Positions 38,106-59,166 of a DNA stretch of 64,000 nt are shown one piece after another. The notes beneath the pieces were generated by a model that was given only the letters and a program-made list of their open reading frames with translations, had not been told where the DNA came from and did no database searches. The position numbers and the translations under genes were made by a program. Position 1 is the stretch's first letter, and each line of letters begins with the position of its first letter. The stretch is from Alphaproteobacteria bacterium (GTDB taxonomy: Bacteria; Pseudomonadota; Alphaproteobacteria; CAAHEQ01; UBA3637): NCBI GenBank assembly GCA_017539265.1, contig JAFYHG010000018.1, positions 8,779 through 72,778 on the forward strand. Reading direction: 5' to 3'.

Positions 38106-38714
38106 TTTAATATCCTTTCTTTTTCCGGTTAAACCTCAGTGGGGCAGAGCATCAATGAACCTTCATCGACACCGGAAGCGTTGTTTTCTCGGGAACTCCC
38201 CGAAATAAGCGCTTTCCCCACATGTGAATTTTGCCGTTTTTGTAAACGACGGTTGCTCTTATACACTATTTTTCCCCAAAAGTCAAGCATTATTTACACC
38301 TAACTCCAACCTTTTTCCATACGTAAAGTTTTCTGTTTTAGGCGCTAAAAAAGCCCCGTCAAAAGGGGCTTTATTACAAACTGGCGCGCCCGGCAGGAGC
38401 TTGGGGGGAAAGCAAAATAACCCACTGGATCAGTTGAAAAATTTTCAGGCAATATTTGAGGGTTTTCAGAAAGTGTCCAGGGGATGACAAGGGGTGATAG
38501 ATGAACAAATTTCTTGATGTATTTCAAGGGTAATTTCATATAAGGATAAAACTGTATTTTTGACACCTGTCTTATAAAAACAAGTTGGGCAAAAGGGCAT
38601 TTGTCAAAGATACATCAAAAGACGTCTTGTGGTAATGGCTTGCACCTCTTTATAAAACCTTTTCCAATACATCTTATTTTTTAAACGCTCTAAAAAACAT
38701 TATATTGTGATATG

Positions 38715-39563
38715 TTAGTCAGCATCATAGGTCCATTGACCATTTCTTAATTCAAATTTATCTAGATTAAATTTGACAGTACAATTTCCTTCAGGATCAC
38801 AACCGCCTGATATATTATTAAGATTCTTGATTTTTATATCTGTTATTATCGGAAAACGGTAGTAAAATACTTTTATTTTAAATGTAACCAGACCGGTCTC
38901 ATCTCCTAACATATTCTCAATGTAATCTAACGCCTTATCTTTTGGAAGATTTAGTTTGAAAATATCATATCTTTTTGCTTTATCCAATTTGATGTTAATG
39001 GCAACCGAGGAAGCATAATTTAGTATTGTATCTGCTAGATAATTCGCCCATAATCTATTATACTGATTTTCAAATAGCGTTTTAATCTCTTTTAAATCCT
39101 GATTCTCTTTTTTAAACTGGTACAAAGAAAGCAAAGTGTTCAGATTTTTTATCAATGGTTCTCCTTTACTAAAAATTTTAACTAATTCTTCCGTACTTTC
39201 AAAAGGATAATCTTTCTTTTCTAGAGAAAAACGGTGCAAGGCTGATTCAATGGCGGCATAATAGAGAACATGGTTCAATACCGTATTTACACAAGATTGA
39301 TACCTTTTCCCCTTTGTGAGGCATTGCTCTACTCTTGTTTTGATCTTTGCAGAGTCATAAGCTTTATCTATTGCCACAAGAGTTTCTTCTACCGTATCAG
39401 CATTCATTGTACCATCAATAATTTCTTGGGTGAGTTCCAATAATTTTGTTCTAAAATTAGAAATGGATTCTATTTGTTGACTTGTCATATCAAGGGCGTA
39501 ACTTTTACTTGTCATCAATACAAAAGTAATGACCAGAGCTAAGGATATTTTTATTTTAGACAT
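38715..39563 (-). CDS. Hypothetical secreted protein
   Basis: It has a signal peptide (MSKIKISLALVITFVLMTSKSYA). Confidence 0.5.
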   Translation of the reverse strand: MSKIKISLALVITFVLMTSKSYALDMTSQQIESISNFRTKLLELTQEIIDGTMNADTVEETLVAIDKAYDSAKIKTRVEQCLTKGKRYQSCVNTVLNHVLYYAAIESALHRFSLEKKDYPFESTEELVKIFSKGEPLIKNLNTLLSLYQFKKENQDLKEIKTLFENQYNRLWANYLADTILNYASSVAINIKLDKAKRYDIFKLNLPKDKALDYIENMLGDETGLVTFKIKVFYYRFPIITDIKIKNLNNISGGCDPEGNCTVKFNLDKFELRNGQWTYDAD

Positions 39564-39566
39564 ATT

Positions 39567-41249
39567 CTAATCCTTTCCGATACAATAAGATTCTGTACCA
39601 TATTCATGTCTTTCTCTTCTTATTTTACGATTTTGGCACATATTACATTGTTCTTCTGCTCCTGTTACATTAAGCCTTGCCAGTCCAATACCATAGTCTC
39701 CTTTGGAATCACAAGAATAACAGTGTGCAAAACCATAGCTTACTTCTAAAATGGGTTTTTCTTCCGGACACGGAATCATACAATATCTTCCGATTAATTT
39801 TCGATTTGGACAAAGCTTACAGTTATTCGTTACACCCTCAAGATCTACTAAATTACTTCCATCATTGCATGCAAAACATTCACCATTTTTATCTCTTAAA
39901 GGTTTATCAGGGGGGCATGACTTTAGGATGCTGTATTTTTCAACAATTTCTCTTTCCGTTTCACAAGCATTAGAGATATTTCCATTTACTTCAATTTTTA
40001 CAGGGGCTGAACAAGCATAGCAGTTACCATCGATATCTACTTGGGGTTTATCTGTTGGACATAATACACAACTGTTCCCCGTATCTAAAACAATTCTATT
40101 AGGACAGATCTGACACACCTCTGCAGCAGCAACACGAATACGAGCAATTTCATCACATGAATGACATTCTCCAACTTCATCCCTAAGGGGTTTATCCTTT
40201 GGACATGTTAAGATACAAATATCGCTATATTTTGTGTGGACAGAATACCTGTTGGGGCACACAGAACAATTTGGTGAGTCAATAGATCTGTTTGCTTCAT
40301 TTTCATCACAAGGATGGCAACGTCCTTCCTTATCGGCCAAAGGTTTGTCCTGTGGACACGGGAGAGAACAGAGATTTCCATACATAATACGGTTTGAACA
40401 TAATTGGCATGTTTGCTCATCGGTTTTTAATTTTTCATCGGTTTCACAATCATAGCATCCTGCGTTTACTCTCATTGGCTTATCAGATGGGCAAGTTTCC
40501 AAAATACATCCATTTTTGTAATCGTATATTCTCTCAGGATATAAAGCACATTGTTGTTTTTGAAAATCTATATTTTCTCTCGCTACATAGGCCCTCAAAG
40601 ATTCTTCTTCGTTTTTAGGTTCCATAAACGTAATAGGTAAAGGATCATCAGTGGCACGACAACCACCATTGCTATCGCGAATTGGGAAGTCTTTTGGACA
40701 TTCCCCCTTTAAAAAACAAATATTCCCGTTTAGTTCACGGTTTGCACATTGTAAACAATTACTTCGTTCATAACTTTGACGGAAGCCTAAATCCAATGCA
40801 GCAGGATCATCACATGAAAAACATTTAAATTCTCTTGTTCGTTCATCAACAATCACTTTAATTGGCTTTTCTTCAGGACAACCGAATGTGCAGGTACCTG
40901 TGGCTCCATCGTTATCTTCAAAAAATTGTGTTCCGGGAATTTGGGCACATTCCCAGTCCGTAAGACCATAAGCATCTTCTCTGGAACAAGCATTATAACC
41001 ACTACCTCTTAAAGGATTGTCTGGTGGACATTCTTTCAGAATACAGTGACCATACTCATCCAATTTTCTATTTGAGCATATGCTTGAGCACTCTTGATTG
41101 TAAACCCCGCGTAGTGTATCACAGGAAAAACATTCCCTATTGTACTCCGCTAATGGTTTATCTGGTGGACAAACAATAGGTTCTTTTTCAGCCATTGCAA
41201 AAGAAGGCATCATTATTGATATAAGTAAAAATAAGGTTGTTTTTTTCAT
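39567..41249 (-). CDS. Secreted cysteine-rich repeat protein (about 10 repeats with CP.DKPL.D..G.C..CD cores)
   Basis: It has a signal peptide. The translation shows about 10 repeats of 45-55 aa with conserved Cys spacing. Confidence 0.55.
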   Translation of the reverse strand: MKKTTLFLLISIMMPSFAMAEKEPIVCPPDKPLAEYNRECFSCDTLRGVYNQECSSICSNRKLDEYGHCILKECPPDNPLRGSGYNACSREDAYGLTDWECAQIPGTQFFEDNDGATGTCTFGCPEEKPIKVIVDERTREFKCFSCDDPAALDLGFRQSYERSNCLQCANRELNGNICFLKGECPKDFPIRDSNGGCRATDDPLPITFMEPKNEEESLRAYVARENIDFQKQQCALYPERIYDYKNGCILETCPSDKPMRVNAGCYDCETDEKLKTDEQTCQLCSNRIMYGNLCSLPCPQDKPLADKEGRCHPCDENEANRSIDSPNCSVCPNRYSVHTKYSDICILTCPKDKPLRDEVGECHSCDEIARIRVAAAEVCQICPNRIVLDTGNSCVLCPTDKPQVDIDGNCYACSAPVKIEVNGNISNACETEREIVEKYSILKSCPPDKPLRDKNGECFACNDGSNLVDLEGVTNNCKLCPNRKLIGRYCMIPCPEEKPILEVSYGFAHCYSCDSKGDYGIGLARLNVTGAEEQCNMCQNRKIRRERHEYGTESYCIGKD

Positions 41250-42022
41250 TGTATAAATCCCCTGATTAACTTATCATCCCATCCTTTGTCAGGACCTGTA
41301 AAAAATCCAAACCCAGAATTAAATTGAAAAAGCTTAACTTCATCCTCAGACATATCTCTTGATTTACCAGAAAGAGCATAAACTTTTCCAGAAACTTTTT
41401 CTCCATCTTGTATTATTTCAAAAGCCTTTCCACCAGTTCTATAAAAGAGTGTTGCTGTGGCTATTTTCTTTTCTTTGTCTACTGATCCAAGATATTTTAA
41501 ATTTCCATTTTTATAATATACCTTAAATTCTCCGGCCTCATCATTTTCTGGATATTCAGCGAATTTTTCACCGCTGGCATAACGCTGTTCTTCTACGTAC
41601 TCCTTTCCATTTTTATAAGTAATACTCCATCTTTGTTCACCATTAATATGGTAATGTATTTCTTTTCCTTCTTTTTCTCCGTTTAAGTATGTTCTTAACA
41701 TTCTTGGAGTCCCATCCGGACGATATTCTTCCAAGGTACCATTGTACTTTCCATCTTTCCAATGAACAATAAAGCGTTTCGTTCCATTGGGCCAATACCA
41801 AATTTCTGTTCCGTTTTTTAGACCATTTTCATAAGGTATTTCTTTTTGAATATTCCCATTTTTAAAGGGAACTTTTACCATCCCTGTAATACTTTGATTG
41901 TTCTGATCTACTACCATATTTAAAGCTGGATCTAAACGGATATCTTTTTCCTGATAAATCGTTTCGGCATTTACAGAAGCCGAAAAGATTAAACACAATG
42001 ATAAAATAAATTTATATTTCAT
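41246..42022 (-). CDS. Secreted MORN-variant (YwqK-like) repeat protein
   Basis: It has a signal peptide and repeated G..W..Y.NG.K..G motifs. Confidence 0.5.
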   Translation of the reverse strand: MKYKFILSLCLIFSASVNAETIYQEKDIRLDPALNMVVDQNNQSITGMVKVPFKNGNIQKEIPYENGLKNGTEIWYWPNGTKRFIVHWKDGKYNGTLEEYRPDGTPRMLRTYLNGEKEGKEIHYHINGEQRWSITYKNGKEYVEEQRYASGEKFAEYPENDEAGEFKVYYKNGNLKYLGSVDKEKKIATATLFYRTGGKAFEIIQDGEKVSGKVYALSGKSRDMSEDEVKLFQFNSGFGFFTGPDKGWDDKLIRGFIQ

Positions 42023-42023
42023 A

Positions 42024-42911
42024 TTATCGAGCCCCCAAACTGATACTAAGTGCTATATCCATCAAATAATCTGTTGCTTTTTGTTCGTCTAAAATGCTTT
42101 TTTCCCCGTTCTCAGAATAAAATTCTCCAGCAATGGCCTTATCTCCTTTGATAGTCAACCGCAACATGGGTTTATTATTTTCATAGTAGACCGTATAGAT
42201 ATAATTTGCTTGTTCTTTGAATTCTTCAGGTACTGGTTCTATATAAAGATATATTCTATTATTACTCGCATAGTAAGTTTTGGTATTTGTTGTCTGATCT
42301 TCTGAGAACGAAAGATTCCCTTTATAATCATACTGTTCCCTTATAGAATTATTTTCATAGCAAGATTCTACTTTTCGTGCTGGCAATTCAGTAATTGGTA
42401 ATCCGGTTACTTTTGAAATGCGTTTCTGTGTCGGGTCAATTTTCGACCTGTATCCGGAATAAGGCCTTCCATCTCTATAATACGTACTTTTAACGCATCT
42501 GTTCATTTTGTACTCTGTTTTTTGGGAAATTTCGCCGGGATGATATTTGTCATATTCAATTACCATACCATTTAGATATCCATCCTTAAAATCATACTCT
42601 TTTTCAAGAATATCTTCTCTATCATAACACTTCATCTTCCCGTCTTTTTTACCGTTTTTTACGGAAAGTTCCATCTTATGGCAAACTGACCACGAATTTG
42701 TCCCGGGTAAAGCAAACACCCTTGTCGAAACACTTTTTAACTGATCTGACTCATTATACAATATTGTTCCTGTGATCGGGTTATAGTTCTTATCATAGAT
42801 AATATCACTTTCCCGAACATCAAGAATATCTGTTAAAGAGTAAACTGCTTGCCCAAAAGATACGGAGGGGCATAAAGCAATGAATAATCCCAATATGGCT
42901 ATTTTTTTCAT
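42024..42911 (-). CDS. Secreted repeat protein (MORN-like)
   Basis: The signal peptide begins at the internal Met (MKKIAILGLFIALCPSVSFG). The sequence is KDG/Y/N-rich and repetitive. Confidence 0.45.
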   Translation of the reverse strand: MKKIAILGLFIALCPSVSFGQAVYSLTDILDVRESDIIYDKNYNPITGTILYNESDQLKSVSTRVFALPGTNSWSVCHKMELSVKNGKKDGKMKCYDREDILEKEYDFKDGYLNGMVIEYDKYHPGEISQKTEYKMNRCVKSTYYRDGRPYSGYRSKIDPTQKRISKVTGLPITELPARKVESCYENNSIREQYDYKGNLSFSEDQTTNTKTYYASNNRIYLYIEPVPEEFKEQANYIYTVYYENNKPMLRLTIKGDKAIAGEFYSENGEKSILDEQKATDYLMDIALSISLGAR

Positions 42912-43476
42912 AACATCCCCCATAATAAAACACTTTTTGTATTGTAAACAATTTTTTTCTAAATGCAAGTGTAAAAAAACGAACATTTTTATTGTCTGCT
43001 GAACTAAATATATTACGAACGTTTTTTAATATTGTTATATAAAATGATCAAAAAGATCTACAAACCGGATATCAAAAAATGCACTAAAAGTTCACCATAA
43101 AGTTCCATAAAAATTGTCCTAAAATCAATTTAAAAATGAGGATAAGAAAAGTGTTTGTTTGTGTCCAAGGATTGTGTCCACCCCTTGTTGCCAAGCAAAA
43201 TTCCCAATTTCAGGCATAAAAAAAGCCTTGATAAACAAGGCATTATTTTAAAAGTGGCGCGCCCGGCAGGAGCTTGGTGGAAAAGTGAAATAACCCACTG
43301 GATCAATTAAAAAATTTTTGGGCGATTTTTGAGGGTTTTCAGAAAGTGCCCAGGGGATGACAAGGGGTGATGAATGGACAAACTTCTTGATGTATTTCAG
43401 GGGTAATTTTACATAAGGATAAAAGTATATTTTGGATATCTGTCATAGGAGCACAGGTTGGGCAAAAAGGCATTTA

Positions 43477-43938
43477 TCAAAGATATTTCAAAAGACGCCT
43501 TGTAATTATGGATTGCCCCTCTTCATAAAGTCTGTCAAGGTACAAGCGTTTCGTAACTCCGTCATTTAAGTCCGAAATATTCCTTATTAGATTATGGACA
43601 CAGTCTATGGAGGGTTTTCTGTGTTCACAAAGGAGCATTCCAAAATAGTACTTGTTCTTGTTCAGGAACTGTTCACTGAACTGGTACTGGCTGTCTATAT
43701 ATCCTAATTTGCGGAGGTACTTATAGCATTTAGTTATAAATTGAGCATCTTCTGTTTGGTCAGAGTAAGGGGGATTGGAGAGTTCATCTGCAACCTCTTC
43801 ATCGACATTTTTGGTGTTTTTAGGTGCGGGTGGCACAAGTTCCTCCGGTGTATTCAGATGCTTTCTGATTTTCCTCATATTTTCGGCAATATCTTCAAAA
43901 CTTACAATCATGAATAATTTCCTTTTAGTAATAGACAT
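43477..43938 (-). CDS. Hypothetical protein
   Basis: It is a 153-aa ORF at the left end of island 2. Confidence 0.35.
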   Translation of the reverse strand: MSITKRKLFMIVSFEDIAENMRKIRKHLNTPEELVPPAPKNTKNVDEEVADELSNPPYSDQTEDAQFITKCYKYLRKLGYIDSQYQFSEQFLNKNKYYFGMLLCEHRKPSIDCVHNLIRNISDLNDGVTKRLYLDRLYEEGQSIITRRLLKYL

Positions 43939-43988
43939 CTGTATTTATAAAGAAAATGATTAAAAAATGGAATTTTTTAAAAAAGATC

Positions 43989-44017
43989 TTGGCTTTTAAA
44001 ATGATCGGCTATATAGT
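43989..44017 (+). promoter_or_regulatory. Promoter cassette TTGGCT-17-TATAGT followed by CCCGGGCC
   Basis: A 40-bp motif (CTTGGCTTTT.AAA..ATCGGCT.TAT..TCCCGGGCC) is also present at 47185-47223. Confidence 0.45.
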
Positions 44018-44060
44018 CCCGGGCCCCGGGCAAGACTGGGGTAACTGAAAGGATAAAAAT

Positions 44061-44432
44061 ATGCTGGAACAACAAATGATACAAAGCGATAACCTGAATA
44101 CCATTATGGCAAATTGCTATGGCACAGAGAATTATTACACAAACAACTATTTGAAATACAATTACACAGACGGAATTAAAACTTTCTGTGAACAGGCATC
44201 CGCTTATTGGTTATTGAGCCTTATCCAAGGGGTTTATACAAAATATCCTCAAATGCGGAAAGATTTAATTGCTATAACACTAATGGTAAATGATGACAAT
44301 ACTGCCATTATTACCTTTACCGATGAAAAAGGTCAATTTTATAAGCAGCGTATTCCTTATACGGATTGTCCGGTAGGAGAATGGAAATTTTATTTTGAAA
44401 ACAATGTATTTTTCTGGAATGGAGAATATTAA
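44061..44432 (+). CDS. Hypothetical protein
   Basis: It is a 123-aa ORF, first of three overlapping genes downstream of the cassette promoter. Confidence 0.4.
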   Translation: MLEQQMIQSDNLNTIMANCYGTENYYTNNYLKYNYTDGIKTFCEQASAYWLLSLIQGVYTKYPQMRKDLIAITLMVNDDNTAIITFTDEKGQFYKQRIPYTDCPVGEWKFYFENNVFFWNGEY

Positions 44433-44865
44433 TATGAATAAAGAACAAATTAAAGAAGCAATATTAGGGAAAAAAGATTGTCATGGGGAAGAAACACCTC
44501 TCTGTCAATTTTCAACATTCCATCCGGATATGGAAATGGTGGAGATATTATTAAAAGGTGCGGATATTAATAAATCTTTTAATCACCAACCGATGGCATG
44601 GGTATTTCAATTCTGTGAACCGAATTGGGATGAAATGCTCACGCTTTTGTTCAAATACAAATACCATGCCTTACATCTGGACAGGAAAAGCGATTTTGAA
44701 AGTTTACTGCAACTTTTATCCAGAGTTAAACCGGAAACCGTGATGTATGTCTTAAAAATAATGAAGAAACATAGGTTTCGACCGACATTTGAACAGATTG
44801 ATTACATAAATAAATCAAAAGAGGATTTTAAAAAGGAGTTTAAATGGAAAGACTGGGTGAAATGA
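44395..44865 (+). CDS. Hypothetical protein
   Basis: It is a 156-aa ORF that overlaps both neighbours (translational coupling). Confidence 0.4.
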   Translation: MKTMYFSGMENINMNKEQIKEAILGKKDCHGEETPLCQFSTFHPDMEMVEILLKGADINKSFNHQPMAWVFQFCEPNWDEMLTLLFKYKYHALHLDRKSDFESLLQLLSRVKPETVMYVLKIMKKHRFRPTFEQIDYINKSKEDFKKEFKWKDWVK

Positions 44866-45317
44866 CAAAAGGTTTGTTAAAAGCAATCAATGAAAGGAAT
44901 TGGCGAGAAATTAAAAGGCTGGTTCACTTGGGCGGAAACTTAAATGCCGCTTACGATCCGTTTGGAAATACACCCTTTTTATATGCCATGCATATTTTTA
45001 AGAAAGCGGAAGAAATTGAACGCTTGATTAAATTAGGTGGAGATGTGACCTATAAAAACAGGGTGGGAAAAACAGCCTTGATGATAGCAGTTGAAAATGG
45101 GTGTGAACCGATAACGCCTTGGGTTATGGTGGATTATGGAGCGGACATTAATGCACAGGATGCATTGGGAAACACCGCCTTAATGATTTGTTTAGAATCC
45201 AGATTATATACCAAGAAACTGCTTTATGCCCTGATAGATTACGGGGCAGATTTAACCAACCTGAAGAATAAGGAAGGGAAAACAGCGTTTGATATACTAT
45301 ATGATGAATTAGAGTAA
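44844..45317 (+). CDS. Ankyrin-repeat protein
   Basis: It has at least 3 ANK repeats (GNTPFLYAMHI.., GKTALMIAVENG.., GNTALMICLE.., GKTAFDIL). Confidence 0.7.
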   Translation: MERLGEMTKGLLKAINERNWREIKRLVHLGGNLNAAYDPFGNTPFLYAMHIFKKAEEIERLIKLGGDVTYKNRVGKTALMIAVENGCEPITPWVMVDYGADINAQDALGNTALMICLESRLYTKKLLYALIDYGADLTNLKNKEGKTAFDILYDELE

Positions 45318-45336
45318 TCACTTTTGCGGAGAAGTG

Positions 45337-47076: not shown

Positions 47077-47185
47077 TGCTTTTAAAGGATTTGAAAAATA
47101 AGGCTATTTTATTTTAACCTATATGCCCCAAATTATGAAATGTTTAATTTTAAAGAAAAAACTTATATTTTTTAACATTTAGGGC

Positions 47186-47214
47186 TTGGCTTTTCAAAAA
47201 ATCGGCTGTATGCT
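47186..47214 (+). promoter_or_regulatory. Second copy of the promoter cassette (TTGGCT-17-TATGCT)
   Basis: It lies inside the 5' extension of track ORF 47186-47839, which argues for the later start. Confidence 0.45.
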
Positions 47215-47257
47215 CCCGGGCCGCAATAAAAGTTCAATTTTAACGAAAGGATACAAA

Positions 47258-47839: not shown

Positions 47840-47850
47840 CTGTGTGGTAG

Positions 47851-48113: not shown

Positions 48114-48161
48114 TATTACATGTTATTTAATGATTGCGCCAAGTGTTTGATGCATTTGTTT

Positions 48162-49130: not shown

Positions 49131-49146
49131 TTATGGGCGGATTTTC

Positions 49147-49174: not shown

Positions 49175-49234
49175 CACTTAAATTAACTAATAGGAAGGGA
49201 GACCGAGAAATCAGTCTCCCCGGAGTTCTTCGCA

Positions 49235-52200
49235 TTAGAATCCAAAAGTCACACCGACTTTGTAGGACACGCTGTCGTTGCCACCATAGGCAGCACCGGC
49301 GTTCAACAATGTCCGGTCGTTGAGATAATGGAATGCACCAACAGCCAAGGCTTGGTTGTTCTTGTATCCGCCCAAAGCCGCACTGACTTGCGTTTTGTGG
49401 ACATGATCCAGAGGAACAAGACCTGCCAAAGCGTTGTTAGCAGCTAACCCGTTTTCCATCTTGGTTTCTAACTTGTTGATACGGCGATCAACGCGGGCGA
49501 ATTCAGCACCCAAGTTATCATTCAAGTTGGTCAAGAGGTCAGAAATGCTTGACGGATCACCAACGGCTTGTGCACCAACAGCACCACCATTAGCTTGTTC
49601 TTTTCCTTTAAAGAACTTTAAGTTCTCTAAAGAAGACAAATCGCCAACAGTTTCATCAACGGCTTCAAAAGCAGATTCTGTAGCTGATTCTAACAATGCA
49701 ATTTGGTTATCTGTGTAAGTATTAGCATTGGCCTCAGCTGTATCAGCAGCACCATATGCATCATATGTATTAGCTGCAATAGCACCACTGATAGATGTAA
49801 TCTTACCATCTGTTTCAACGATGTTCAAAGACAAACCATCAGCACCTGCTGCTTGTGATACATTAGCATCTAAAGCATTAACTTTACCATCTGCGTAAGT
49901 CTTTGCATCAGCCAAAGCATTAGCAGCAGCACCATATGCATCATATGTATTAGCTGCAATAGCACCGCTGATAGCTGTAATCTTACCATCTGTTTGTGTA
50001 ATACTTAATGATAAGCCATCAGCACCGGCTGCTTGTGATACATTAGCATCCAAAGCATTAACTTTACCATCTGCGTAATTTTTGGCATTGGTTTCTGCTG
50101 TATTAGCATAACCTTTTGCTTGAGTATTCACATAAGTAACTGCTTCTGCAAGAGAACCAACCTGTTCGGTTGATACTTCTAAAGCGGTACGCATTGTATC
50201 CAGATTACCGACACGGCTATCAAGACCTTTGATTTGTCCATCTAAAACAATGTCAGCACCTGTCAATGTTGTTGCAGCTGTCAGGTAGTTTGTATCGGCG
50301 TATTCGTTGTTAACTGCATTCGAATTGGCCGAAGTAATACCCAATGTGTTATCAACCCATTGTTGTTTCTCGTTGAAGATAGCTTCTGCTTCTGTCCGTG
50401 TATAGACATCTGCGAGATTTGCTTTGTTAGCATCCAAAGCATCCAAAGCACCACGAACTGTTGTCGTTGAGCCTTCGCCTTGCTTTAACACAGAACCGTC
50501 TACAGCTTCTTCATCCGCATAGTTAACATCACCGATGGTGTCATTTGTGCCTTTGATTTGCGCATCCAAAACAATGTCAGCACCTGTCAAGGTTGTTGCA
50601 TCCGTCAGGTAGTTTGTGTCGGCGTATTCGTTGTTAACTGCATTCGCATTAGCCGAAGTAATACCCAATGTGTCATCAACCCATTGTTGTTTTTGTGCAA
50701 AGATAGCTTCTGCTTCGCTTCTGACACCGGCAACAGCCGTTGTAACAGCGGTATTAATCTTGCCATCAACAACTTTGCCCAATGAATCATCATAGGCCGC
50801 TACACTAGCCTCATGAGTAGCTGTATCAGTTGTGAAGTTAGTATTAGCTGTTTGCAATGATCCTTCCCAATTATTCAGGTTAGTTACTGTTGCTTGGTCA
50901 GTCGCCATGGTAGTAGCAATCTTATCCTTATTTGCAACGCTGTCATCATAGTAACCTTTTAATTCGGATTGTCTATTGGCCAGAGCCGTTACATCAGATT
51001 CGTAAGCATTAACTAGGTCTGCTTTGATACCTGCTGTAGTTGCATCATCTGCTGATACTGCTGTTCCATTTTTCTTTAAGACATAGCCATCTTCTGACGC
51101 TTCGATGGTATAATGGTCACCTGCAGTATTCGTCAATTCATAATTGGCAATATCAACACTTCCAGTTCCTGCGCTAGATGCAGTGATATCAAGTTTACCA
51201 CCTAAATCACTCGTCTGAACTGTATCTGTTAATTCTGCAACCGCTGTGCTACCTGCGACAGAAGTAGAATTACCATCTTTATCATATGTGACATATGTAT
51301 AATCATCGGCAGTCAGAGTACCACTATCATAGGACAGGTCGGCCACAGCAGAAATACCATCTACAGTAGCAGCTGCAGAAGTTGCAGTGTAATCTGCCGA
51401 TGTATAGGAAGCACCAGCGACTAAATCTGTGGGATTACCTTCTGGATCTGTAAAGCCATAATCCGCGGCATCCGGTGCATCACCAGGAGCGTTTGCAGAA
51501 ATGCTTGACACTTTATCAGACAATGTCTTCAAAGCAGTGTCCAAAGCGGTATCAGCACCCGTCAAGGTTGTTGCAGCTGTCAGGTAATTTGTTCCGGTGT
51601 ATTCGTCGTTAACTGCATTCGCATTAGCCGAAGTAATACCCAATGTGTTATCAACCCAGGTTTGCTTTTCGTTGAAGATAGCTTCTGCATTATCCCATAA
51701 TGTTCCCAAAGCGGTATCTGTATAGTTTTTCGCATAAGTCTTTGCATTTGCTTCAGCTGTATTCGCTTTCGTTGTTGCATCAGTAGCAGCGGCTGTAATC
51801 GCTTCGGATTTAGCAGTAGCAGCAGCACCATAAGCATCATATGTATTTGCAGCAATGCTACCAGAAATACCAGTAATCACACCATTTTCTTGAGTGATGC
51901 TCAAAGCCAATTGACCATTACCTGCGGCTGCAGCTTGAGTTTCTGTTGCATTCAAAGCATCAATTGCATCACCAACTGTTTTGCTCACAGAACCATCGCC
52001 TGTACCATTCAAGGTAGCAATAGCGCTCTCGTTTGTTGTGATTTTACCTACAAGAGTAGAAGTAATACCAGAGTTGACGGCAGCTAATTGTTCTGTTCCC
52101 AATTTTGCTTGGTATGTATTCGCCAAATCTAAAGCATCAATTGCATCACCAACTGTTTTGCTCACAGAACCATCGCCTGTACCATTCAAGGTAGCAATAG

Positions 52201-52726
52201 CATCTGCATTGGCTTTAACCTGTGTATCCAATAACTTATCTGCGCCAGCCATTGTTGTTGCGCCTGTCAGATAATTTGTACCGGTATACGCATTTGTTAC
52301 CCCAGTTGTTCCGGTGGATAAATCAACGCCCAATGTTTTCTGGGAAATGACACCACCTGTTAATTCTACAAAATCACCAACAGCAGTATTGACAACGGCA
52401 TAATCACCAGCATCTGAACTACCCGCTAGCAATTGTGCTAAAGCATCACGAGTGTATTTGGGGTGAGCCGCTGCAAAATCTGCATCAATGGTGTAATCTG
52501 TTCCACCAAGATTTGTAGTGTAGGTGTCTGTCCCCGTTGTGATGGCTGTATGAAAATTAGTTAAGTTTGTTGCAACTGAAGCAGTAGGGTCATAAGCCTC
52601 ATCTGCTGCCTTTGCACCTGTGGCAACGATTAAGCCCACTGCAAAGGCATTAAGCAGAAAACATTTCTTCAAAACACTACGGTATCTCGCAGAAAGTTCT
52701 CTGATTGTTGTTTTTGTATATTTCAT
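49235..52726 (-). CDS. Trimeric autotransporter adhesin (YadA-like), 1163 aa, island-encoded
   Basis: It has a signal peptide, a Thr/Ala/Gly-rich passenger domain with long internal repeats, and a C-terminal anchor (ALGGYKNNQALAVGAFHYLNDRTLLNAGAAYGG...VGVTFGF) homologous to the C-terminus of the 1-2417 gene. Confidence 0.8.
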   Translation of the reverse strand: MKYTKTTIRELSARYRSVLKKCFLLNAFAVGLIVATGAKAADEAYDPTASVATNLTNFHTAITTGTDTYTTNLGGTDYTIDADFAAAHPKYTRDALAQLLAGSSDAGDYAVVNTAVGDFVELTGGVISQKTLGVDLSTGTTGVTNAYTGTNYLTGATTMAGADKLLDTQVKANADAIATLNGTGDGSVSKTVGDAIDALDLANTYQAKLGTEQLAAVNSGITSTLVGKITTNESAIATLNGTGDGSVSKTVGDAIDALNATETQAAAAGNGQLALSITQENGVITGISGSIAANTYDAYGAAATAKSEAITAAATDATTKANTAEANAKTYAKNYTDTALGTLWDNAEAIFNEKQTWVDNTLGITSANANAVNDEYTGTNYLTAATTLTGADTALDTALKTLSDKVSSISANAPGDAPDAADYGFTDPEGNPTDLVAGASYTSADYTATSAAATVDGISAVADLSYDSGTLTADDYTYVTYDKDGNSTSVAGSTAVAELTDTVQTSDLGGKLDITASSAGTGSVDIANYELTNTAGDHYTIEASEDGYVLKKNGTAVSADDATTAGIKADLVNAYESDVTALANRQSELKGYYDDSVANKDKIATTMATDQATVTNLNNWEGSLQTANTNFTTDTATHEASVAAYDDSLGKVVDGKINTAVTTAVAGVRSEAEAIFAQKQQWVDDTLGITSANANAVNNEYADTNYLTDATTLTGADIVLDAQIKGTNDTIGDVNYADEEAVDGSVLKQGEGSTTTVRGALDALDANKANLADVYTRTEAEAIFNEKQQWVDNTLGITSANSNAVNNEYADTNYLTAATTLTGADIVLDGQIKGLDSRVGNLDTMRTALEVSTEQVGSLAEAVTYVNTQAKGYANTAETNAKNYADGKVNALDANVSQAAGADGLSLSITQTDGKITAISGAIAANTYDAYGAAANALADAKTYADGKVNALDANVSQAAGADGLSLNIVETDGKITSISGAIAANTYDAYGAADTAEANANTYTDNQIALLESATESAFEAVDETVGDLSSLENLKFFKGKEQANGGAVGAQAVGDPSSISDLLTNLNDNLGAEFARVDRRINKLETKMENGLAANNALAGLVPLDHVHKTQVSAALGGYKNNQALAVGAFHYLNDRTLLNAGAAYGGNDSVSYKVGVTFGF

Positions 52727-53005
52727 TAACTATACCTTTCTTTTTAATATTAAAATTAAAGTTACGAGGAGTTCTCTTTTTCAAAACCCTCGTCCGTCAT
52801 CTTACACAAATGTTCCTTTATGAAATGATTTGAAGAAAAGTGATAAAAATAGCATACTTTTGTCTTATATATTATTGTATTTTCAATATGTTATATTCAA
52901 TTTTAATTTTTTTAAAAAAAATGTTAAAAAATGTTTGCAATTTAAGGAACTATTTTTTGCATATGAAATTATCGGCAATAAATAACTTTAACAAAAGGAT
53001 ACAAA

Positions 53006-53617
53006 ATGGCAACTATCGCATATATCAGGGTTAGCAGCGATAAACAAACCTGTTCTAACCAACACTTTACGATTAAAGAATACACAAAATCTCACAATAT
53101 CCACATTGATAAATGGGTTGAAGAGACTATTTCCAGCAAGAAACCTTTGGAAAAGCGGGAATTAGGCGTATTATTAAATAAAATGGATAAAGGCAGTTTA
53201 TTAATTGTAACGGAAATCAGCCGTCTTGCCCGTAATCTATACGAATTGGCGGGCATATTGCAAAATGCTATTAAGAACGACATTACTGTTATTAGTATCA
53301 AGGAAAACTATCAGTTCAAAAATGATATCCAGTCCAAAATTATGGCATATACTTTTGGGCTTGCCGCAGAAATTGAGCGTGATTTGATCTCAACCCGCAC
53401 TAAAATGTCATTGGATAAATTAAAAAAGCAAAATGTTAAATTAGGCAGACCATTCGGGGCGGAGACAAAATGTTTAAAACTATCCAAAAACCGCAAGAAA
53501 ATAAGGGAATTATTAGGAAAAGGTGTCAGTCAGGCCAAAATATCCAAAATCCTTGGCGTCCACCCGACAACCATGTGCCGGTTCTTGAAACGAGTGGATG
53601 TGTCAACCTGTTCCTGA
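53006..53617 (+). CDS. Serine recombinase (resolvase/invertase family, Hin/Gin-like)
   Basis: It has an N-terminal catalytic motif (IAYIRVSSDKQ), a small resolvase-type catalytic domain and a C-terminal HTH (GVSQAKISKILGVHPTTMCRFLKR). Confidence 0.8.
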   Translation: MATIAYIRVSSDKQTCSNQHFTIKEYTKSHNIHIDKWVEETISSKKPLEKRELGVLLNKMDKGSLLIVTEISRLARNLYELAGILQNAIKNDITVISIKENYQFKNDIQSKIMAYTFGLAAEIERDLISTRTKMSLDKLKKQNVKLGRPFGAETKCLKLSKNRKKIRELLGKGVSQAKISKILGVHPTTMCRFLKRVDVSTCS

Positions 53618-53852
53618 TGGGAATGTTCCTCGCCAAAAGGCGGCTAACCACTTTGTTTTTGATCTTGTATGACGGCATCAGGCAGTTTAATCCCACTTAT
53701 TATACAAAAGCCCTCTATTTTAATCCCAAATAAAAGGAATCTATTATCAAATTCACCTCTATAATAGTTCTATTTTATTTCTATTATAATTCTATTATAG
53801 GAACAAAAAACACCCAGATAGGCCTTGTGTTTATTGGCGTTTCTCAAATTGT

Positions 53853-54060
53853 ACCGAACATAACAGTCTCCGCTACCGAACATATGGGCACCGGGAGCGA
53901 ACATATGAGCATCGCTAGCGAACATAACAGTCTCCAAAATTGCCCAAACCGAACATATAAGCATCGCCCCCCTAAAAAACGAACATATCAACCTCTAGCG
54001 AATAATTTTTTTGTAAATCGGTGAAATCCATCATCGAGCGAATAAATACCCCTGTAAATC
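53853..54060. repeat. Iteron-like direct repeat array (six (C/G)CGAACATA units at 21-31 bp spacing plus two degenerate GCGAATAA units)
   Basis: The repeats begin at 53853, 53875, 53897, 53918, 53949, 53979 and at 53998 and 54046. They are preceded by an AT-rich block of TCTATTATA/CTATAATAG 9-mers at 53750-53800. Confidence 0.6.
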
Positions 54061-54076
54061 AATTTTAGGAGGTTTT

Positions 54077-54589
54077 ATGAGTAAAAGTAAATCAGATTTG
54101 TCCCTCACAAAGCGTGTGTTGTTGGACTTTGTAAAATTTAAGACCCAAAACGGGCATCAATTCTTTGCGAGCAACGAGTATATTGCCAAAGGTTTAGATC
54201 TAACCGAGAATACTGCCAAGACATTTGTTAATGACCTTATAAGAGAAGGATACCTTTATAAAGAGATAGATAAGAGAGGCATGAGAATTTTATCCCTAAC
54301 CGGTAAGGAATACAAACCATTGTTTGAAGATTTGAGGAACTTTGATAAGAAAGTACTTAAAGAGGACAGAGATAACTTTCAAAGGGATAACAAATATTTG
54401 AACCAACAGTTAGAACAGGAAACAGCATATAAGGAACAACTATTAAACGAAAATACAGATTTAGTCCTTTCCAATGCTGAACTAACCCATCGTGTTCAGG
54501 AACTGGAAAAGAGAGTTACTGCTTTGGAGAACATCTTTTATAAAAATGGAATGACAAAGGAACAACTGGAGGATTTATTGAATAAATAA
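54077..54589 (+). CDS. Winged-helix DNA-binding protein with C-terminal coiled coil (candidate iteron-binding Rep/regulator)
   Basis: The N-terminal 85 aa are wHTH-like. The C-terminus has a heptad leucine pattern. A strong SD (AGGAGG) precedes it, directly downstream of the iteron array. Confidence 0.45.
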   Translation: MSKSKSDLSLTKRVLLDFVKFKTQNGHQFFASNEYIAKGLDLTENTAKTFVNDLIREGYLYKEIDKRGMRILSLTGKEYKPLFEDLRNFDKKVLKEDRDNFQRDNKYLNQQLEQETAYKEQLLNENTDLVLSNAELTHRVQELEKRVTALENIFYKNGMTKEQLEDLLNK

Positions 54590-54632
54590 AAATGTGGGCA
54601 TGCTTTCAACCACACTTCATAAAAATACACCC

Positions 54633-55022
54633 TCAACTCTCGTTGAGGGTTTTTGCTTGTTTCTGTTGATCCAATGCCCAATCCAGAATCTGTTTCCTTC
54701 GTTCAAAGGCATTCTCTTTCGGGAACTTTTCTTCATAGCGGTCAAGCATAGCGTAAAGCAAAAGTGAAGCAAACGGATTCTTGTTAAATGCGGCATAATC
54801 CCTGGCAGTCCAACCTCTATAATCCATATAATTCGGATTTGCTCCATGTTCCAGCAGATATTCAACAACCGTCAAGTCACCCGATAGCATACAACAAACT
54901 TGAAGTATTGATGACAATTGAGTGTTTATCGGTTGATTGATATCATCCAGTAGCGACACAACATACTTAACATCCTCAATTGTATCTACAAATACTTCAT
55001 CTTTATCTTCCTGATTTTCCAT
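54633..55022 (-). CDS. Ankyrin-repeat protein (short)
   Basis: It has an ANK-like unit (VVEYLLEHGANPNYMDYRGWTARDYAA). Confidence 0.5.
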   Translation of the reverse strand: MENQEDKDEVFVDTIEDVKYVVSLLDDINQPINTQLSSILQVCCMLSGDLTVVEYLLEHGANPNYMDYRGWTARDYAAFNKNPFASLLLYAMLDRYEEKFPKENAFERRKQILDWALDQQKQAKTLNES

Positions 55023-55606
55023 TTTTTGCCTCCGTTCTTTTGAAATCTAGTAAAAATTTAGCAACTGCCTTTTGATATTCAACCTTTTCCGGTTCTAGTA
55101 ACTCTTCGTATATATCTAGCAATTTCTCCAAAGTATCCTTTAATTTATCTTCGGGCGTATGCCTTAAAGTGAACTGAACCGCTTTTAATAAAGACATTCC
55201 CAACATTATTGCTCCTTTTCATCTCTGATGATCTGCTCCATGCATATTTTCATGGCATTTAATATTCTTTCTGCTATCATTTTGACTCCTTTATTTTAAT
55301 TCAAGGATATTTATCGGGGCGATTTCAAAATGGAATCATTTTCAAAAAACGAATCCTTTTTGAGCCGATTTGGGGGATTTTAGATTATTTTTGAAGAAAT
55401 TCCCCGAAAAAACATTCAAAAAAATACCCCCCTTTTTCATTTTTTTTACATCAATATCCATCAATATCGCCATTTTTACATCAATATAGATTCCCTTCAA
55501 AAAAAAGTTATTGCGGCAATTTTATTTCTGGATATTCTTTTGCTTACCAATGCGGGGTGGTCTCGCAAAGGTGCCAACAATCTAACGAAAAGAAAGGAAA
55601 TTAAAA

Positions 55607-56113
55607 ATGTTAGAAAATACAGAAAATCAAACCATGGAATCCTTTATGAGTTCCTTTGGGATTGTTCCCATGACAACCATTAAGGATGAAGGATTGCTTT
55701 CATTCGACAATTGCAAAGACAGAATTCTGAAAATGATTGAATTAAATATTCAGAACTTTAAGAACAATCTTTGGAACGAGAGAAATTACATGATGAAGAT
55801 GCTGGTTGACCTTGATCCAAAGCGTAATAAATCCATTTGCACAGTCCGTTTAGGCGGCAAAAGGGTTTATAAATGCAATTGTGAAACCTTAAACACACCG
55901 AGAAAAGTTGAATTTTTAACCAAGTTCTATGAAGGCGTTTCCAGAGGGTTCTTGGATAAAAAGATTACGGAATTCTGTGAACGACAGGTTGCTTTGGCAG
56001 AAGACCGTAAGAAAATCCAACGGGAAAAGCGTAAAGCACAAAGAAAAGCAGATCGTGAAGCCTTAAAAAAGCAAGAGGCTGAAGTGCAATCACATCAGCC
56101 CCACATTGCTTGA
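55607..56113 (+). CDS. Hypothetical protein with basic C-terminus
   Basis: It is a 168-aa ORF whose C-terminus is Lys/Arg-rich (KKIQREKRKAQRKADREALKKQEAE). Confidence 0.4.
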   Translation: MLENTENQTMESFMSSFGIVPMTTIKDEGLLSFDNCKDRILKMIELNIQNFKNNLWNERNYMMKMLVDLDPKRNKSICTVRLGGKRVYKCNCETLNTPRKVEFLTKFYEGVSRGFLDKKITEFCERQVALAEDRKKIQREKRKAQRKADREALKKQEAEVQSHQPHIA

Positions 56114-56356
56114 TTATTTAACAGAGAGTGGAAAACTGGAACTTTTTCACTCTCATAACCTAACAAAAGGAATTATACTATGACTGAAATTAAAAGTCAA
56201 ATAAAAATGCGTGATGTATTGCGGCAACTCCATCAACCGGAAGAGGTCTACAGGGAATATCTTTATAGTTCTGAAGATGAGCAAAGATTTTTAGAACATG
56301 TTGTGGACACAATTTTAACCAAGGGCTATATGCCGGCATAAGAAAGGAGGTAAAAG

Positions 56357-56926
56357 ATGAAAAATATTGAAGAGATGACCTTAAAAGAGGCAATAGACGA
56401 ATTATCAGAAATGCTTTTGGATTACTTGCCGGACAATGATGATAACGACAGATTTGAGGAACTATATGAAAAAATTAGAGAAGAAGTAGATGATATAGAT
56501 GTTGATACAAAAGATTTTATAGCACATGTGGAGTTTTATCCACTTGATGGAGATGAGATATATGAAACAGACACCAATATTATCTCTGGAGATTTTTTTG
56601 ATTGGCGGCATTCAAGTGACTTTGGTCCGCCAGCAGAAGCATGGCTCGCGGTTTTTAATGCCAGTCAGTGTTCACTTCAAAAAAAGTGTGCAACTTATCC
56701 TTTGGAAAAGATTCAAAAAGAATTGACAGATGATGTGTTGCAAAAGGTCTTCAAGGGACATGGTTTAGTAGATTTTAGATACCTATTGGCAAATCCTCGT
56801 AAGGATGTCGTGGGATGGGCATTGAAGCACAAGTATGAACTTAATTTCAGAGGTATACCACCAGAGTTCATAGAGGAGCGTCAGGCAATTCCTGAACTAA
56901 AGGAACTTATCTTAAAGACCTTATAA
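56357..56926 (+). CDS. Hypothetical acidic protein
   Basis: It is a 189-aa ORF with an Asp/Glu-rich N-terminal half and a good RBS (AAGGAGG). Confidence 0.4.
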   Translation: MKNIEEMTLKEAIDELSEMLLDYLPDNDDNDRFEELYEKIREEVDDIDVDTKDFIAHVEFYPLDGDEIYETDTNIISGDFFDWRHSSDFGPPAEAWLAVFNASQCSLQKKCATYPLEKIQKELTDDVLQKVFKGHGLVDFRYLLANPRKDVVGWALKHKYELNFRGIPPEFIEERQAIPELKELILKTL

Positions 56927-57006
56927 AAAAACAGAGCAAATTCCATAAAGGGCTTGACATTTGCGACCTGATCTGATCAGATCGCGATCCTTAAAAGGGA
57001 GAATGA

Positions 57007-58779
57007 ATGTCATACCACTATCCTGGACTGATTATATTATACGGGCAATTTTATATTAGGGTTAGAATACCCGCCTGTTTAAGAATGATCGCCAGATGCA
57101 AAGAGATAAGATATTCATTACAAACAAAAATCTATCAGGAAGCAATTGAAAAGTACCACGTGGAATTTGCTCATTTACAAGCATTTTTAACAATTTTTAA
57201 GGATATAATTATGAAAGTAAATGAGAATAAACAATTAACTTTAACTGAAACTGATGTGGACAAATTATTGCTCCACAGGTTAGAACAAATCCAAACCTTT
57301 TTGGAAAATAATGTAGATGAAATCAAGTCCCGACATAAGTCCGAGGCAGATATTATTTTGCTCTCAAGGGATAAAAAAGAAGCGGATATCCGCAAATTAA
57401 TGCAGGATATGATTTTGGGTTATTTGAAAGGACTGGTGGATAAAAATAAGGCAAATATCACTTTGCGGATGATTTACACTCAACTCAAAAATAAAGAGAT
57501 TGAGTTGGGGTTAGTGCAACAGGGGGAAAAATATGATTGGTTAAAAGCATTTTCCACCCACATTAACCATTTAGACCATTATGCCCAAAAATCTGTTAAG
57601 GCAATCCAAGAGGAAAAGCATTATGCCCCAACCAACCCAAAGGTTATAACCCTTTTGCGCACTTATGATTCCATGAAAACGGATGAGCGAATTCACTGTT
57701 CTATGGCAGCAACCCATTGGAAAAAGTTTTTCAAACGCTATCTGACGATGAAAAAGAATATTAAAGGGACATCTAATAAAAGGTTGTGTAAATTGGAGAA
57801 ATGTATTTGGTTAGCATTTGCACTTATGAAACGGGAGTATGTAGAAGATGTAACCAAACAGGATTGTCGCCAACTTTGCGAACTGATACATCGAGTTCCG
57901 AAACGGTGGCAAGAAAAAATTAGGGGAGATGATATTTTCCAAATTTTGACAGATAACCCTGAAAAGGCACTATCTAAAACAACCATTCAAGGATACTTAA
58001 CAGTATTTAAGGAGTACATGCGTTATGCTGAAAGAGAGGAGATTATTTCCAATAATTTGAATAGCGCAGTAGATGTACCTATCAATGTAAAACCATTTCA
58101 GCGAGAACCCTTTACAGCGAAAGATTTACACAAGATGTTTAATTCAGAAACATATATAGATCCCCGTATCAGAAAGGATTTACCCAAATTCTGGATACCA
58201 ATTATAGCCCTTTACCATGGTTGTCGTTTGAATGAAATCTGTCAATTGGATGTCAATGATATTGTGCAAGAAAAGGGAATACCTTGTATCAGCATTAATG
58301 CAAATGCCCCAGATAAATCCGTTAAAAATAAAGGATCTGAACGAATAATACCACTACATCCAAAACTAATTGAAATGGGATTTTTATATTATGTTGAATA
58401 TCAAAAACGAGGGCACAAACGAAAATTGTTTGACCTAAAACAGATTAAAAACGGGATGTATGGTAGTCCGGTCCAACATTGGTTTGCACGATATTTAGAT
58501 AGTATTGGGATAACGGAAACAACCAAAGTTTTTCATTCGTTCCGGCATACTTTTGAGACAATGGCAACAGAAAAGAGAATTCCCCCACAATATCAAAATG
58601 CAATTTGTGGGTGGACAGAACAAGGCATTGGACAAAGACTTTATGCCCACAAGAAGGACATGAACATTATGTTAGAAGAAATCAGCAAAATTAACTATCC
58701 AATCAATCGTGAACTGTCAGAACTAAAGAAGTCTTTCATGGATTCATTTGTTGTCAGGTCTTTAAGGGCAAATGGATAA
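57007..58779 (+). CDS. Tyrosine-type phage/island integrase
   Basis: The C-terminal catalytic motifs are present (..HSFRHTFETMA.. box II, GWT, RLYAHK). It lies adjacent to the tRNA gene. The true start may be an internal Met. Confidence 0.8.
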   Translation: MSYHYPGLIILYGQFYIRVRIPACLRMIARCKEIRYSLQTKIYQEAIEKYHVEFAHLQAFLTIFKDIIMKVNENKQLTLTETDVDKLLLHRLEQIQTFLENNVDEIKSRHKSEADIILLSRDKKEADIRKLMQDMILGYLKGLVDKNKANITLRMIYTQLKNKEIELGLVQQGEKYDWLKAFSTHINHLDHYAQKSVKAIQEEKHYAPTNPKVITLLRTYDSMKTDERIHCSMAATHWKKFFKRYLTMKKNIKGTSNKRLCKLEKCIWLAFALMKREYVEDVTKQDCRQLCELIHRVPKRWQEKIRGDDIFQILTDNPEKALSKTTIQGYLTVFKEYMRYAEREEIISNNLNSAVDVPINVKPFQREPFTAKDLHKMFNSETYIDPRIRKDLPKFWIPIIALYHGCRLNEICQLDVNDIVQEKGIPCISINANAPDKSVKNKGSERIIPLHPKLIEMGFLYYVEYQKRGHKRKLFDLKQIKNGMYGSPVQHWFARYLDSIGITETTKVFHSFRHTFETMATEKRIPPQYQNAICGWTEQGIGQRLYAHKKDMNIMLEEISKINYPINRELSELKKSFMDSFVVRSLRANG

Positions 58780-59089
58780 AAGGGCAAAGGTGTTCAAAAT
58801 ACATTTTAGGCAACCGTCATGGGAATCATATTAGGGTGTTCAAGCGGTAAAAAATCCAAAAGGTGAAATGGTATCAATGTCATCAAAAAGTTCGTGGCAA
58901 AAAGTTTAGGATGAAAGGGGTTGATGAAAGTGTTTTTGAATAGCCAGATAATGCTGAAAACTAGCTGTAAAAAGCACATGTCACAGAAGTCTTTGTGTCC
59001 AAGGATTGTGGCCAACCCCTGTGGCCAAGCAAAATCACCCTGTTTCAGGCACAAAAAAAGCCTTGATAAACAAGGCATTATTCTAAAAG

Positions 59090-59166
59090 TGGCGCGCCCG
59101 GCAGGATTCGAACTTACAACCTTCTGATCCGTAGTCAGATGCTCTATCCAATTGAGCTACGGGCGC
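59090..59166 (-). tRNA. tRNA-Arg (anticodon ACG)
   Basis: A 77-nt cloverleaf was folded by hand: acceptor GCGCCCG/CGGGCGC, D-arm GCTC..GAGC, anticodon stem TCTGA/TCAGA with loop CTACGGA, T-loop TTCGAAT, and a CCA encoded. The T-stem has one A-C mismatch. Confidence 0.8.

Follow-up and report, generated by a model that had tools for sequence, protein, structure and literature searches.

The 64,000-nucleotide window analyzed here, taken from a metagenome-assembled genome (MAG) of an alphaproteobacterium (locus tags IKS41_), contains at positions 38382-59106 what we interpret, with a probability of about 0.85, as a tandem array of two related integrative elements that arose by accretion at the 3' end of the tRNA-Arg(ACG) gene. 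The insert spans 20.7 kb and consists of a 4.9-kb element distal to the tRNA gene (island 1, 38399-43254) and a 15.8-kb element adjacent to it (island 2, 43272-59089), each bounded by copies of the tRNA 3' end that we refer to as cores. This segment is foreign in composition: GC content is ~35% across 38.4-59.1 kb versus ~45% on either side, and the shift falls exactly at the outer cores.

tRNA-Arg(ACG) is the sole tRNA gene of the window (59090-59166, minus strand; ARAGORN), and Rfam concurs (RF00005, 64.9 bits). The 16-mer TGGCGCGCCCGGCAGG occurs exactly three times in the window, with starts at 38382, 43255 and 59090 and an expectation of 0 from 100 shuffles, and alignment of the three junctions (J1, J2 and J3, from the distal to the tRNA-proximal side) revealed a common core of 17 bp, TGGCGCGCCCGGCAGGA, in which the 16-mer is extended to ...GGA and which corresponds to the tRNA 3' end including CCA. 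On their inner sides the cores are flanked by two kinds of arm. The A arms of island 1 (A1) and island 2 (A2) are ~90% identical over ~97 bp, with two ungapped blocks at 91% and 94%, and the B arms (B1, 38399-38660; B2, 43272-43533) are 84% identical with gaps over 262 bp, a likeness that persists in protein to 38675, beyond the end of the aligned DNA at 38660. Past the arms, island 1 and island 2 DNA is ~52% identical, the random level, and no protein cross-matches between the islands were found outside the arms. Because A1 flanks J2 on the left and B2 flanks it on the right, J2 is a hybrid, attP-like junction between the islands. Integrase-bearing island 2 abuts the intact tRNA gene and island 1 lies distal to it, the arrangement looked for in accretion. 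An earlier note on this DNA, made from its letters, had proposed the layout core-[B..A]-core-[B..A]-core(tRNA) for two related tandem elements, and the core and arm alignments bear this out; its three core positions and both of its arm repeats also stand, but its figures (16 bp for the core, 107 bp for the A arm, 270 bp at ~87% for the B arm) give way to those above. The arm-type sites that the note had suggested looking for in the arms have candidates, three repeats per A arm and one arm-type-like site per B arm (Table 1); Rfam returned no matches within the arms. By fold prediction, the A2 hairpin GCCTTGATAAACAAGGC (59060-59076) is the terminator of the tRNA on the minus strand.

Island 2 encodes three recombinases, a 590-aa integrase, a small tyrosine recombinase and an Mpi-like serine invertase. 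By position and family only the 590-aa product fits the role of att integrase, and the other two are not att integrases; the claim that only the tRNA-proximal element encodes an integrase is thus right for the att integrase and falls short of the number of recombinases. The integrase gene adjoins tRNA-Arg and is convergent with it, the protein matches the PHROG 1 integrase family (1e-28), and the tyrosine-recombinase catalytic set (R407, K437/K440, H510, R513, W536 and Y546) is invariant across 24 aligned homologs. A PDB sequence search with the integrase gave zero matches. Databases hold 88 homologs of the integrase, ~70 of which share 45-93% identity, all from uncultured gut or rumen Alphaproteobacteria. 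In reference MAGs, the relatives keep the same convergent geometry, at distances of 310-880 bp from a tRNA gene 3' end (Glu(CTC), Leu(TAA), Leu(CAA), Thr(GGT), Ala(GGC), Val(TAC) or Val(GAC)), and the target range of the family amounts to at least 10 different tRNAs. The backbone order of invertase, HTH_36 protein, Ank protein, two proteins without assigned function and integrase is syntenic in L017, L020, L021, L024-L027 and L046. PHROG matches are limited to integrases, a weak DnaD-like match and one unknown family, IMG/VR contains only distant integrase relatives (27-31% identity), and by these two measures the family is without phage links. Island 2 belongs to this family of small integrative elements of gut and rumen Alphaproteobacteria, which is populous although previously uncharacterized.

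The A arms of this family follow a common plan, in which three direct repeats 13 bp apart are succeeded by ~20 nt, AGGCAT-A6-7, a hairpin with a 6-bp stem, ~10 nt and the tRNA end. All integrase-adjacent arms of family loci (14/14) conform to the sequence of three repeats, hairpin and tRNA end, with a repeat motif that differs by sublineage (TGTGTCCCA, GGTGTTACA or TGTGTTACA in relatives, TGTGKCCA here). The 13-bp-phased repeats would be the arm-type sites of the integrase. On the tRNA strand, the arm hairpin and the U-run after it fold like an intrinsic terminator, and we infer that the element supplies a replacement tRNA terminator, which would also shield the convergent integrase gene from tRNA read-through. 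The relative L099 has an integrase 85% identical and the same three repeats at a different tRNA; therefore, arm recognition is kept while core specificity changes. L032 contains a complete element of 5.9 kb whose boundaries are marked by a 16-nt repeat of the tRNA-Val(GAC) end; apart from this locus, no distal core repeats were detected within the 10-kb flanks of family loci (L017-L030). B-arm DNA is unconserved between the window and L032 or L105 past the DUF6626 coding end. In the L025-L027 and L046 subfamily, the DUF6626 gene is located between integrase and tRNA, on the A side, whereas in the window it occupies the B end; because it is nearest the core and transcribed towards the core in both arrangements, DUF6626 may act in recombination or its control. 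A second DUF6626 protein (P0190, IKS41_05685; 55% identical) is encoded on another contig (94 kb) of the same MAG and suggests another family element elsewhere in this genome.

Island 1 is best read, on sequence grounds, as the product of decay of a family element and not as a purpose-built satellite, because it combines a DUF6626 remnant with a family-plan A arm that lacks an integrase, and because its gene module is internal cargo in the related locus L105. The remnant (38607-38675, in B1) comprises the last 23 codons of DUF6626 (tblastn, 57% over 23 aa, E 1e-3) and occupies the site that corresponds to the intact gene in island 2. Behind the A1 arm there is no integrase, unlike behind A2: Pfam detected no recombinase, relaxase or type IV secretion system (T4SS) domain in the four island 1 open reading frames (ORFs), and tblastn at E<=1 found no integrase remnant in the island, in agreement with the earlier note, which was also right in describing the cargo as entirely of secreted type, since all four ORFs start with signal-peptide-like N-termini. 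All four genes have orthologs inside an element of L105, where gene order and the orientation with respect to the A and B ends are kept; this element additionally encodes a family integrase, the invertase, the small tyrosine recombinase, DUF6876 and DUF6626, and its module is not surrounded by att sequences. Orthologous four-gene modules were found in L105-L109; for the 282-aa protein of island 1, the whole database yielded only two homologs. In L107-L109, the module is placed between the end of an autotransporter-like gene and the start of a YadA-like adhesin, with short flanks without att arms, which makes a third context. A cis-mobilizable element (CIME) is a decayed element that no longer has integration genes and that retains attL and attR (PMC5704250). 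In island 1, the ends are related attL and attR sites (the 17-bp core is identical at both ends, and A1 and B1 are ~90% and 84% identical to A2 and B2), recombinase, relaxase and T4SS domains are lacking, and derivation by decay is indicated by the DUF6626 remnant and by the occurrence of the module inside the integrase-bearing L105 element.

We propose that a first element, by means of a heterobivalent-type tyrosine integrase with a DUF6538 N-terminus, would have recombined its attP (B arm, 17-bp core, A arm) with the tRNA 3' end, an event that would have duplicated the 17-bp core and turned the element hairpin into the new tRNA terminator. This element would then have lost its backbone (the integrase, the 5' part of DUF6626 and the rest) by internal deletions, for which two deletions from an L105-like parent would suffice, one from the A arm to the module and one from the module to the DUF6626 end, leaving island 1 as a CIME-type remnant with both arms, both cores and the four-gene secreted-protein module. 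A second related element, island 2, whose arms are 84-90% identical, would later have entered the tRNA-proximal att site to yield core-B1..A1-core-B2..A2-core/tRNA, which is the order of integration events that we infer. Because the cores are identical and the arms are of the same type, the island 2 integrase could in principle excise any of three units, island 1 alone, island 2 or the composite, with the junctions predicted in Table 1, and mobilization of island 1 in cis or in trans appears plausible.

Related loci contain further traces of such events. At the distal end of the integrase-bearing element of L105 (17870-20858), DUF6626 and the B arm are followed by a 17-nt tRNA-Leu(TAA) core (18571-18587), past which lie a hairpin and then three CCCGTCA repeats of another A arm; the region behind this second A arm lacks an integrase and contains MIF and methyltransferase genes together with a small tyrosine recombinase fragment, and we regard L105 as a second case of accretion. 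In L032, a mirror-image A-arm fossil (3144-3315) follows tRNA-Met (3068-3143); it consists of a hairpin, a T-run, two TGTGTTACAC repeats and ~60 further homologous bases, and abuts the distal core of the 5.9-kb element. In L024 (12300-21400), no tRNA is found downstream of the family integrase and DUF6626, and the arm-type motif CCCGATTGGATTTT occurs four times (13091, 15853, 18160 and 18227) among effector-like genes for a tyrosine phosphatase, a Cys-rich secreted protein, an Ank protein and a MORN protein, with a serpin gene upstream. L024 may be an array of decayed units, although the alignment is too weak to call.

Table 1. Features of the tRNA-Arg(ACG) array and its rpsB flank, with att assignments and predicted junctions.
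Feature	Position	Strand	Details
rpsB	37338-38105	minus	Chromosomal flank common to empty-site strains
rpsB leader	38108-38226	minus	RF01815 (Rfam)
Flank with rpsB promoter region, leader and rpsB	37338-38296	minus
Segment between J1 core and rpsB promoter	38297-38381	minus	Terminator hairpin 38352-38370
Distal core, J1	38382-38398		Outer array boundary; GC changes between 35% and 45% here
B1 arm, island 1	38399-38675		DUF6626 remnant; one arm-type-like site, GTGTCCA, at 38473
Island 1 cargo	38715-42986	minus	Four co-oriented genes, all with signal-peptide-like N-termini
Cargo gene	38715-39563	minus
Cargo gene	39567-41249	minus	Cys-rich CPxDKP repeats
Cargo gene	41246-42022	minus	MORN_2 repeats
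Cargo gene	42024-42986	minus	Probable start 42911
A1 arm, island 1	43158-43254		TGTGTCCA at 43160, TGTGTCCA at 43173, TGTTGCCA at 43186; hairpin GCCTTGATAAACAAGGC 43225-43241
Middle core, J2	43255-43271		A1 on left, B2 on right
B2 arm, island 2	43272-43548		Overlaps last 24 DUF6626 codons; one arm-type-like site, GTGCCCA, at 43346
DUF6626 gene	43477-43938	minus	B end of island 2
DUF6876 gene	44061-44432		Island 2
156-aa protein	Between DUF6876 gene and Ank 44844-45317		Island 2; no assigned function
Ank protein	44844-45317		Island 2
579-aa protein	45337-47076	minus	Island 2
Small tyrosine recombinase	47186-47839		Island 2
Multi-HTH (five-fold HTH) protein	48162-49130	minus	Island 2
YadA-type adhesin	49235-52726	minus	Island 2; 1163 aa
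Mpi-like serine invertase	53006-53617	+	NF009949, 240.8 bits vs cut-off 272
HTH_36/DnaD-like protein	54077-54589	+	Conserved backbone; DnaD-like PHROG match weak
Ank protein	54633-55022	minus	Conserved backbone
Two conserved unknowns (168 and 189 aa)	55607-56113, 56357-56926	+	Backbone
att integrase	57007-58779	+	590 aa; Pfam PF20172 (DUF6538, N-terminal) and PF00589 catalytic domain
A2 arm, island 2	58992-59089		TGTGKCCA direct repeats at 58994, 59007 and 59020 (13-bp phase); AGGCAC-A7; hairpin GCCTTGATAAACAAGGC 59060-59076
tRNA-proximal core, J3	59090-59106		3' 17 nt of tRNA-Arg(ACG), integration target
att sites, island 2	J3 and J2		J3 (tRNA-core-A2) = attL; J2 (B2-core) = attR
att sites, island 1	J2 and J1		J2 (core-A1); J1 (B1-core)
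att sites, composite	J3 and J1
Predicted island 2 circle junction			...GCATTATTCTAAAAG-TGGCGCGCCCGGCAGGA-GCTTGGTGGAAAAGTG
Predicted island 1 circle junction			...GCATTATTTTAAAAG-core-GCTTGGGGGGAAAGCAA
Predicted composite circle junction			...GCATTATTCTAAAAG-core-GCTTGGGGGGAAAGCAA
Predicted restored attB			...TTCGAATCCTGCCGGGCGCGCCA-GTTTGTAATAAAGCCCC

The unoccupied target is represented by two contigs from other samples, L003 and L005, which carry glucokinase, tRNA-Arg and rpsB with nothing between. Both encode an RpsB identical to that of the window within flanking DNA that is 96-99% identical, indicating conspecific strains, and the 20.7 kb are therefore an insertion that is polymorphic within the species. 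The comparison with related genomes lacking the insertion that the earlier note had in mind is thus at hand, and both contigs display the original junction that it predicted, in which tRNA-Arg lies directly upstream of rpsB.

Several points weigh against the accretion reading. L003 and L005 do not have the J1 flank of the window; between the tRNA gene and the rpsB promoter they have a 125-bp segment instead (L003 394-518; L005 619-743; also L004 1-104) whose opening hairpin module shows homology to the A arms of the family (z 14-25 against shuffles, compared with A arms at other tRNAs), followed by 85 bp not present in the window. The empty-site strains are therefore not simply the pre-integration state of the window strain, and the empty allele appears to bear a scar left by an earlier element instead of being an untouched attB. 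Neither an excised circle nor a restored attB nor a single-island contig was found in assemblies or in one metagenome scan; the scan of metagenome contigs with a 23-mer spanning the core and B-arm junction gave a chance match only, in a high-GC epimerase gene (L097), and exact-protein look-ups of junction-proximal genes for solo islands always returned both islands or the empty site. Islands 1 and 2 occur side by side on every occupied contig, so nothing points to movement of either one independently. In addition, the function of the arm sites and the activity of the integrase are deduced from sequence, and the array could have been acquired already assembled. The J1 flank of the window (38297-38381) was considered as a third, older A-arm fossil and rejected, as it scored z <=8.4 versus z <=9.2 for a control tRNA terminator and a native terminator is simpler; it is probably the displaced native terminator of tRNA-Arg. 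That the variable segment stops exactly at the rpsB promoter is what one would expect if the promoter does not tolerate deletions that reach into it.

The possibility of an array acquired ready-made, i.e. a composite of both islands that was built in another host and arrived in one step via the outer sites, is one that we take seriously but consider doubtful. Transfer of a whole tandem of a CIME and an integrative and conjugative element (ICE) has been reported (PMC5704250), GC is equal in both islands, and no strain with island 1 alone is among those found; this last absence weighs little because few strains were sampled, and direct evidence for a one-step arrival is lacking. It is rather unlikely that island 1 is a satellite-like minimal element that is actively mobile, under selection and moved alone in trans by the island 2 integrase or by others of the family. 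A perfect core match (17/17), homology to island 2 that does not extend past the arms and, on the A side, starts within a few bp of the first repeat, A1 repeats that depart from the integrase-linked consensus (A2, L099) by one base in each of two sites with the 13-bp phase intact, and the presence of the four-gene module in three contexts would all suit such an element. However, the truncated DUF6626 indicates decay and not design, the module has no arms of its own in L105 and L107-L109, islands 1 and 2 stand together with the same junctions on all occupied contigs, an attP or solo form was not seen, and A1 alone fails the strict triple-repeat test that 14/14 integrase-linked arms pass.

Only a slim chance attaches to a broader proposal, by which integrase-less segments flanked by arms and cores would be a working currency, with resident integrases capturing, reshuffling and exporting effector cassettes at tRNA arrays. 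By analogy, such a system might be functionally comparable to the integron platform, with secreted Cys-rich, MORN, Ank, serpin and phosphatase proteins as cargo, and, if it were real, element hairpins would be co-opted as host tRNA terminators, which would account for the persistence of arm fossils beside tRNAs even in 'empty' strains. An assembly artefact as the origin of the repeats, whether a chimeric MAG contig or an att region that was collapsed or duplicated, is scarcely credible: the source is a metagenome assembly and some short-read contigs (L008, L011) break at the arms, but the arm copies differ by 10-16% and so are not duplicated reads, and J2 and both islands are 99.98-100% identical across pipelines and samples, in ENA ERZ27256873, ENA ERZ28653651 scaffold_2147 and Logan SRR12529267, with Logan SRR31077518 spanning parts of the array region. 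Assembly duplication, which the earlier note had named as its first possible objection, is excluded because the arm copies have diverged and J2 is identical in three independent assemblies. Its second, a conserved chromosomal stretch of 21 kb in which the core repeats would be incidental, has nothing in its favor other than a location between conserved genes and can be dismissed given the empty sites in conspecific strains, a GC content 10 points lower inside and three cores where chance predicts 0.

Accretion with a CIME-type remnant, the reading that we prefer, is a known phenomenon, and we compared the array with described systems. Accretion of CIMEs with ICEs or integrative and mobilizable elements (IMEs) is documented for ICESt1/ICESt3 and CIMEs of Streptococcus thermophilus (Pavlovic 2004; Bellanger 2011; summarized in PMC5704250), and as in that case the internal att site of the array is a hybrid and the target 3' end is present in three directly repeated copies (PMC5704250). 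Unlike in S. thermophilus, the host is an uncultured alphaproteobacterium, the partner of ~16 kb has no detectable conjugation or relaxase genes and hence is not an ICE, and the DUF6538 integrase family and the att arms are different, with a cis-mobilization that is plausible. Across the island ORFs, searches of Pfam, NCBIfam and PHROGs for T4SS, coupling protein, relaxase and capsid domains were negative, so that an ICE, whose conjugation module was not detected, is not indicated. Given the PHROG and IMG/VR results above, neither is a phage satellite of the phage-inducible chromosomal island (PICI) or phage-inducible chromosomal minimalist island (PICMI) type. PADLOC found no defence genes in the islands. 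As for an IME, island 2 has its own integrase and no relaxase was detected, and the 579-, 168- and 189-aa backbone proteins are without assignable function. The ssrA islands of Dehalococcoides form tandem arrays that have direct repeats of a small RNA gene's 3' end as their boundaries, with conserved nucleotides beside each repeat, and many of them lack an integration module and were proposed to be CIMEs (PMC3146451); those islands use a serine recombinase, target tmRNA and carry reductive dehalogenases (PMC3146451). Here, a tyrosine recombinase with putative arm-type repeats, tRNA targets and secreted or eukaryote-like cargo are found instead. tRNA islands and prophages with heterobivalent integrases of the lambda/P4 type enter tRNA 3' ends, supply the tRNA end from the element and have arm-type sites off the core. 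The array shares with them integration at a tRNA 3' end that the element itself supplies, an integrase beside the tRNA and putative, repeated arm-type sites away from the core, but its integrase, with 590 aa and a DUF6538 N-terminus, is of unusual length, a conserved arm terminator hairpin would replace the tRNA's own, and no excisionase was identified here. Integrase-less phage satellites such as PICMI borrow the integrase of a helper. Island 1 resembles PICMI in being att-flanked and integrase-less and in that it would need an integrase in trans, but it has no phage-related genes and no close viral-contig relatives and it shows signs of decay, so that the resemblance is functional at most.

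Other features of the window merit description. Within island 2 (47047-53617), the serine invertase and the small tyrosine recombinase bracket the five-HTH protein and the YadA-type adhesin, whose gene has internal 167-180-nt repeats; both recombinase genes share a 26-nt leader (47236-47261 and 52984-53009, 92%), and a stretch at 47047-47180 consists of a 25-nt inverted repeat around 84 bp. This recombinase-bracketed region could be a site of phase variation of the adhesin. A second YadA-anchor protein is encoded at the start of the window (105-2417). Two low-GC patches of 33-34% (13001-14000 and 20001-21000) contain ORFs without Pfam matches, and the ORF at 20078-21118 is weakly similar to the 320-aa protein of island 1. 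Between rpsB and tsf, which are usually adjacent, lie three ORFs of ~180 aa (35648-37295) without Pfam matches. Two of them are clearly paralogous (36% identity, E 4e-33), the third shows a weak relationship, and the empty-site contig L003 has these ORFs as well.

The lineage and the element family have not been described before, and the finding gives no sign of a new mechanism and leaves the existing understanding of array formation unaltered. It documents accretion and CIME formation in an uncultured host-associated lineage of Alphaproteobacteria, and exposes a coherent and abundant family that is defined by a DUF6538 integrase, an arm with three repeats and a terminator, and at least 10 tRNA specificities. 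The cargo of the family, which includes Ank and MORN proteins, YadA adhesins, serpin and tyrosine phosphatase, provides a handle on the movement of host-interaction genes in gut and rumen bacteria, and its integrases, 85% identical with the same putative arm sites and different cores, represent a natural series for the change of target specificity.

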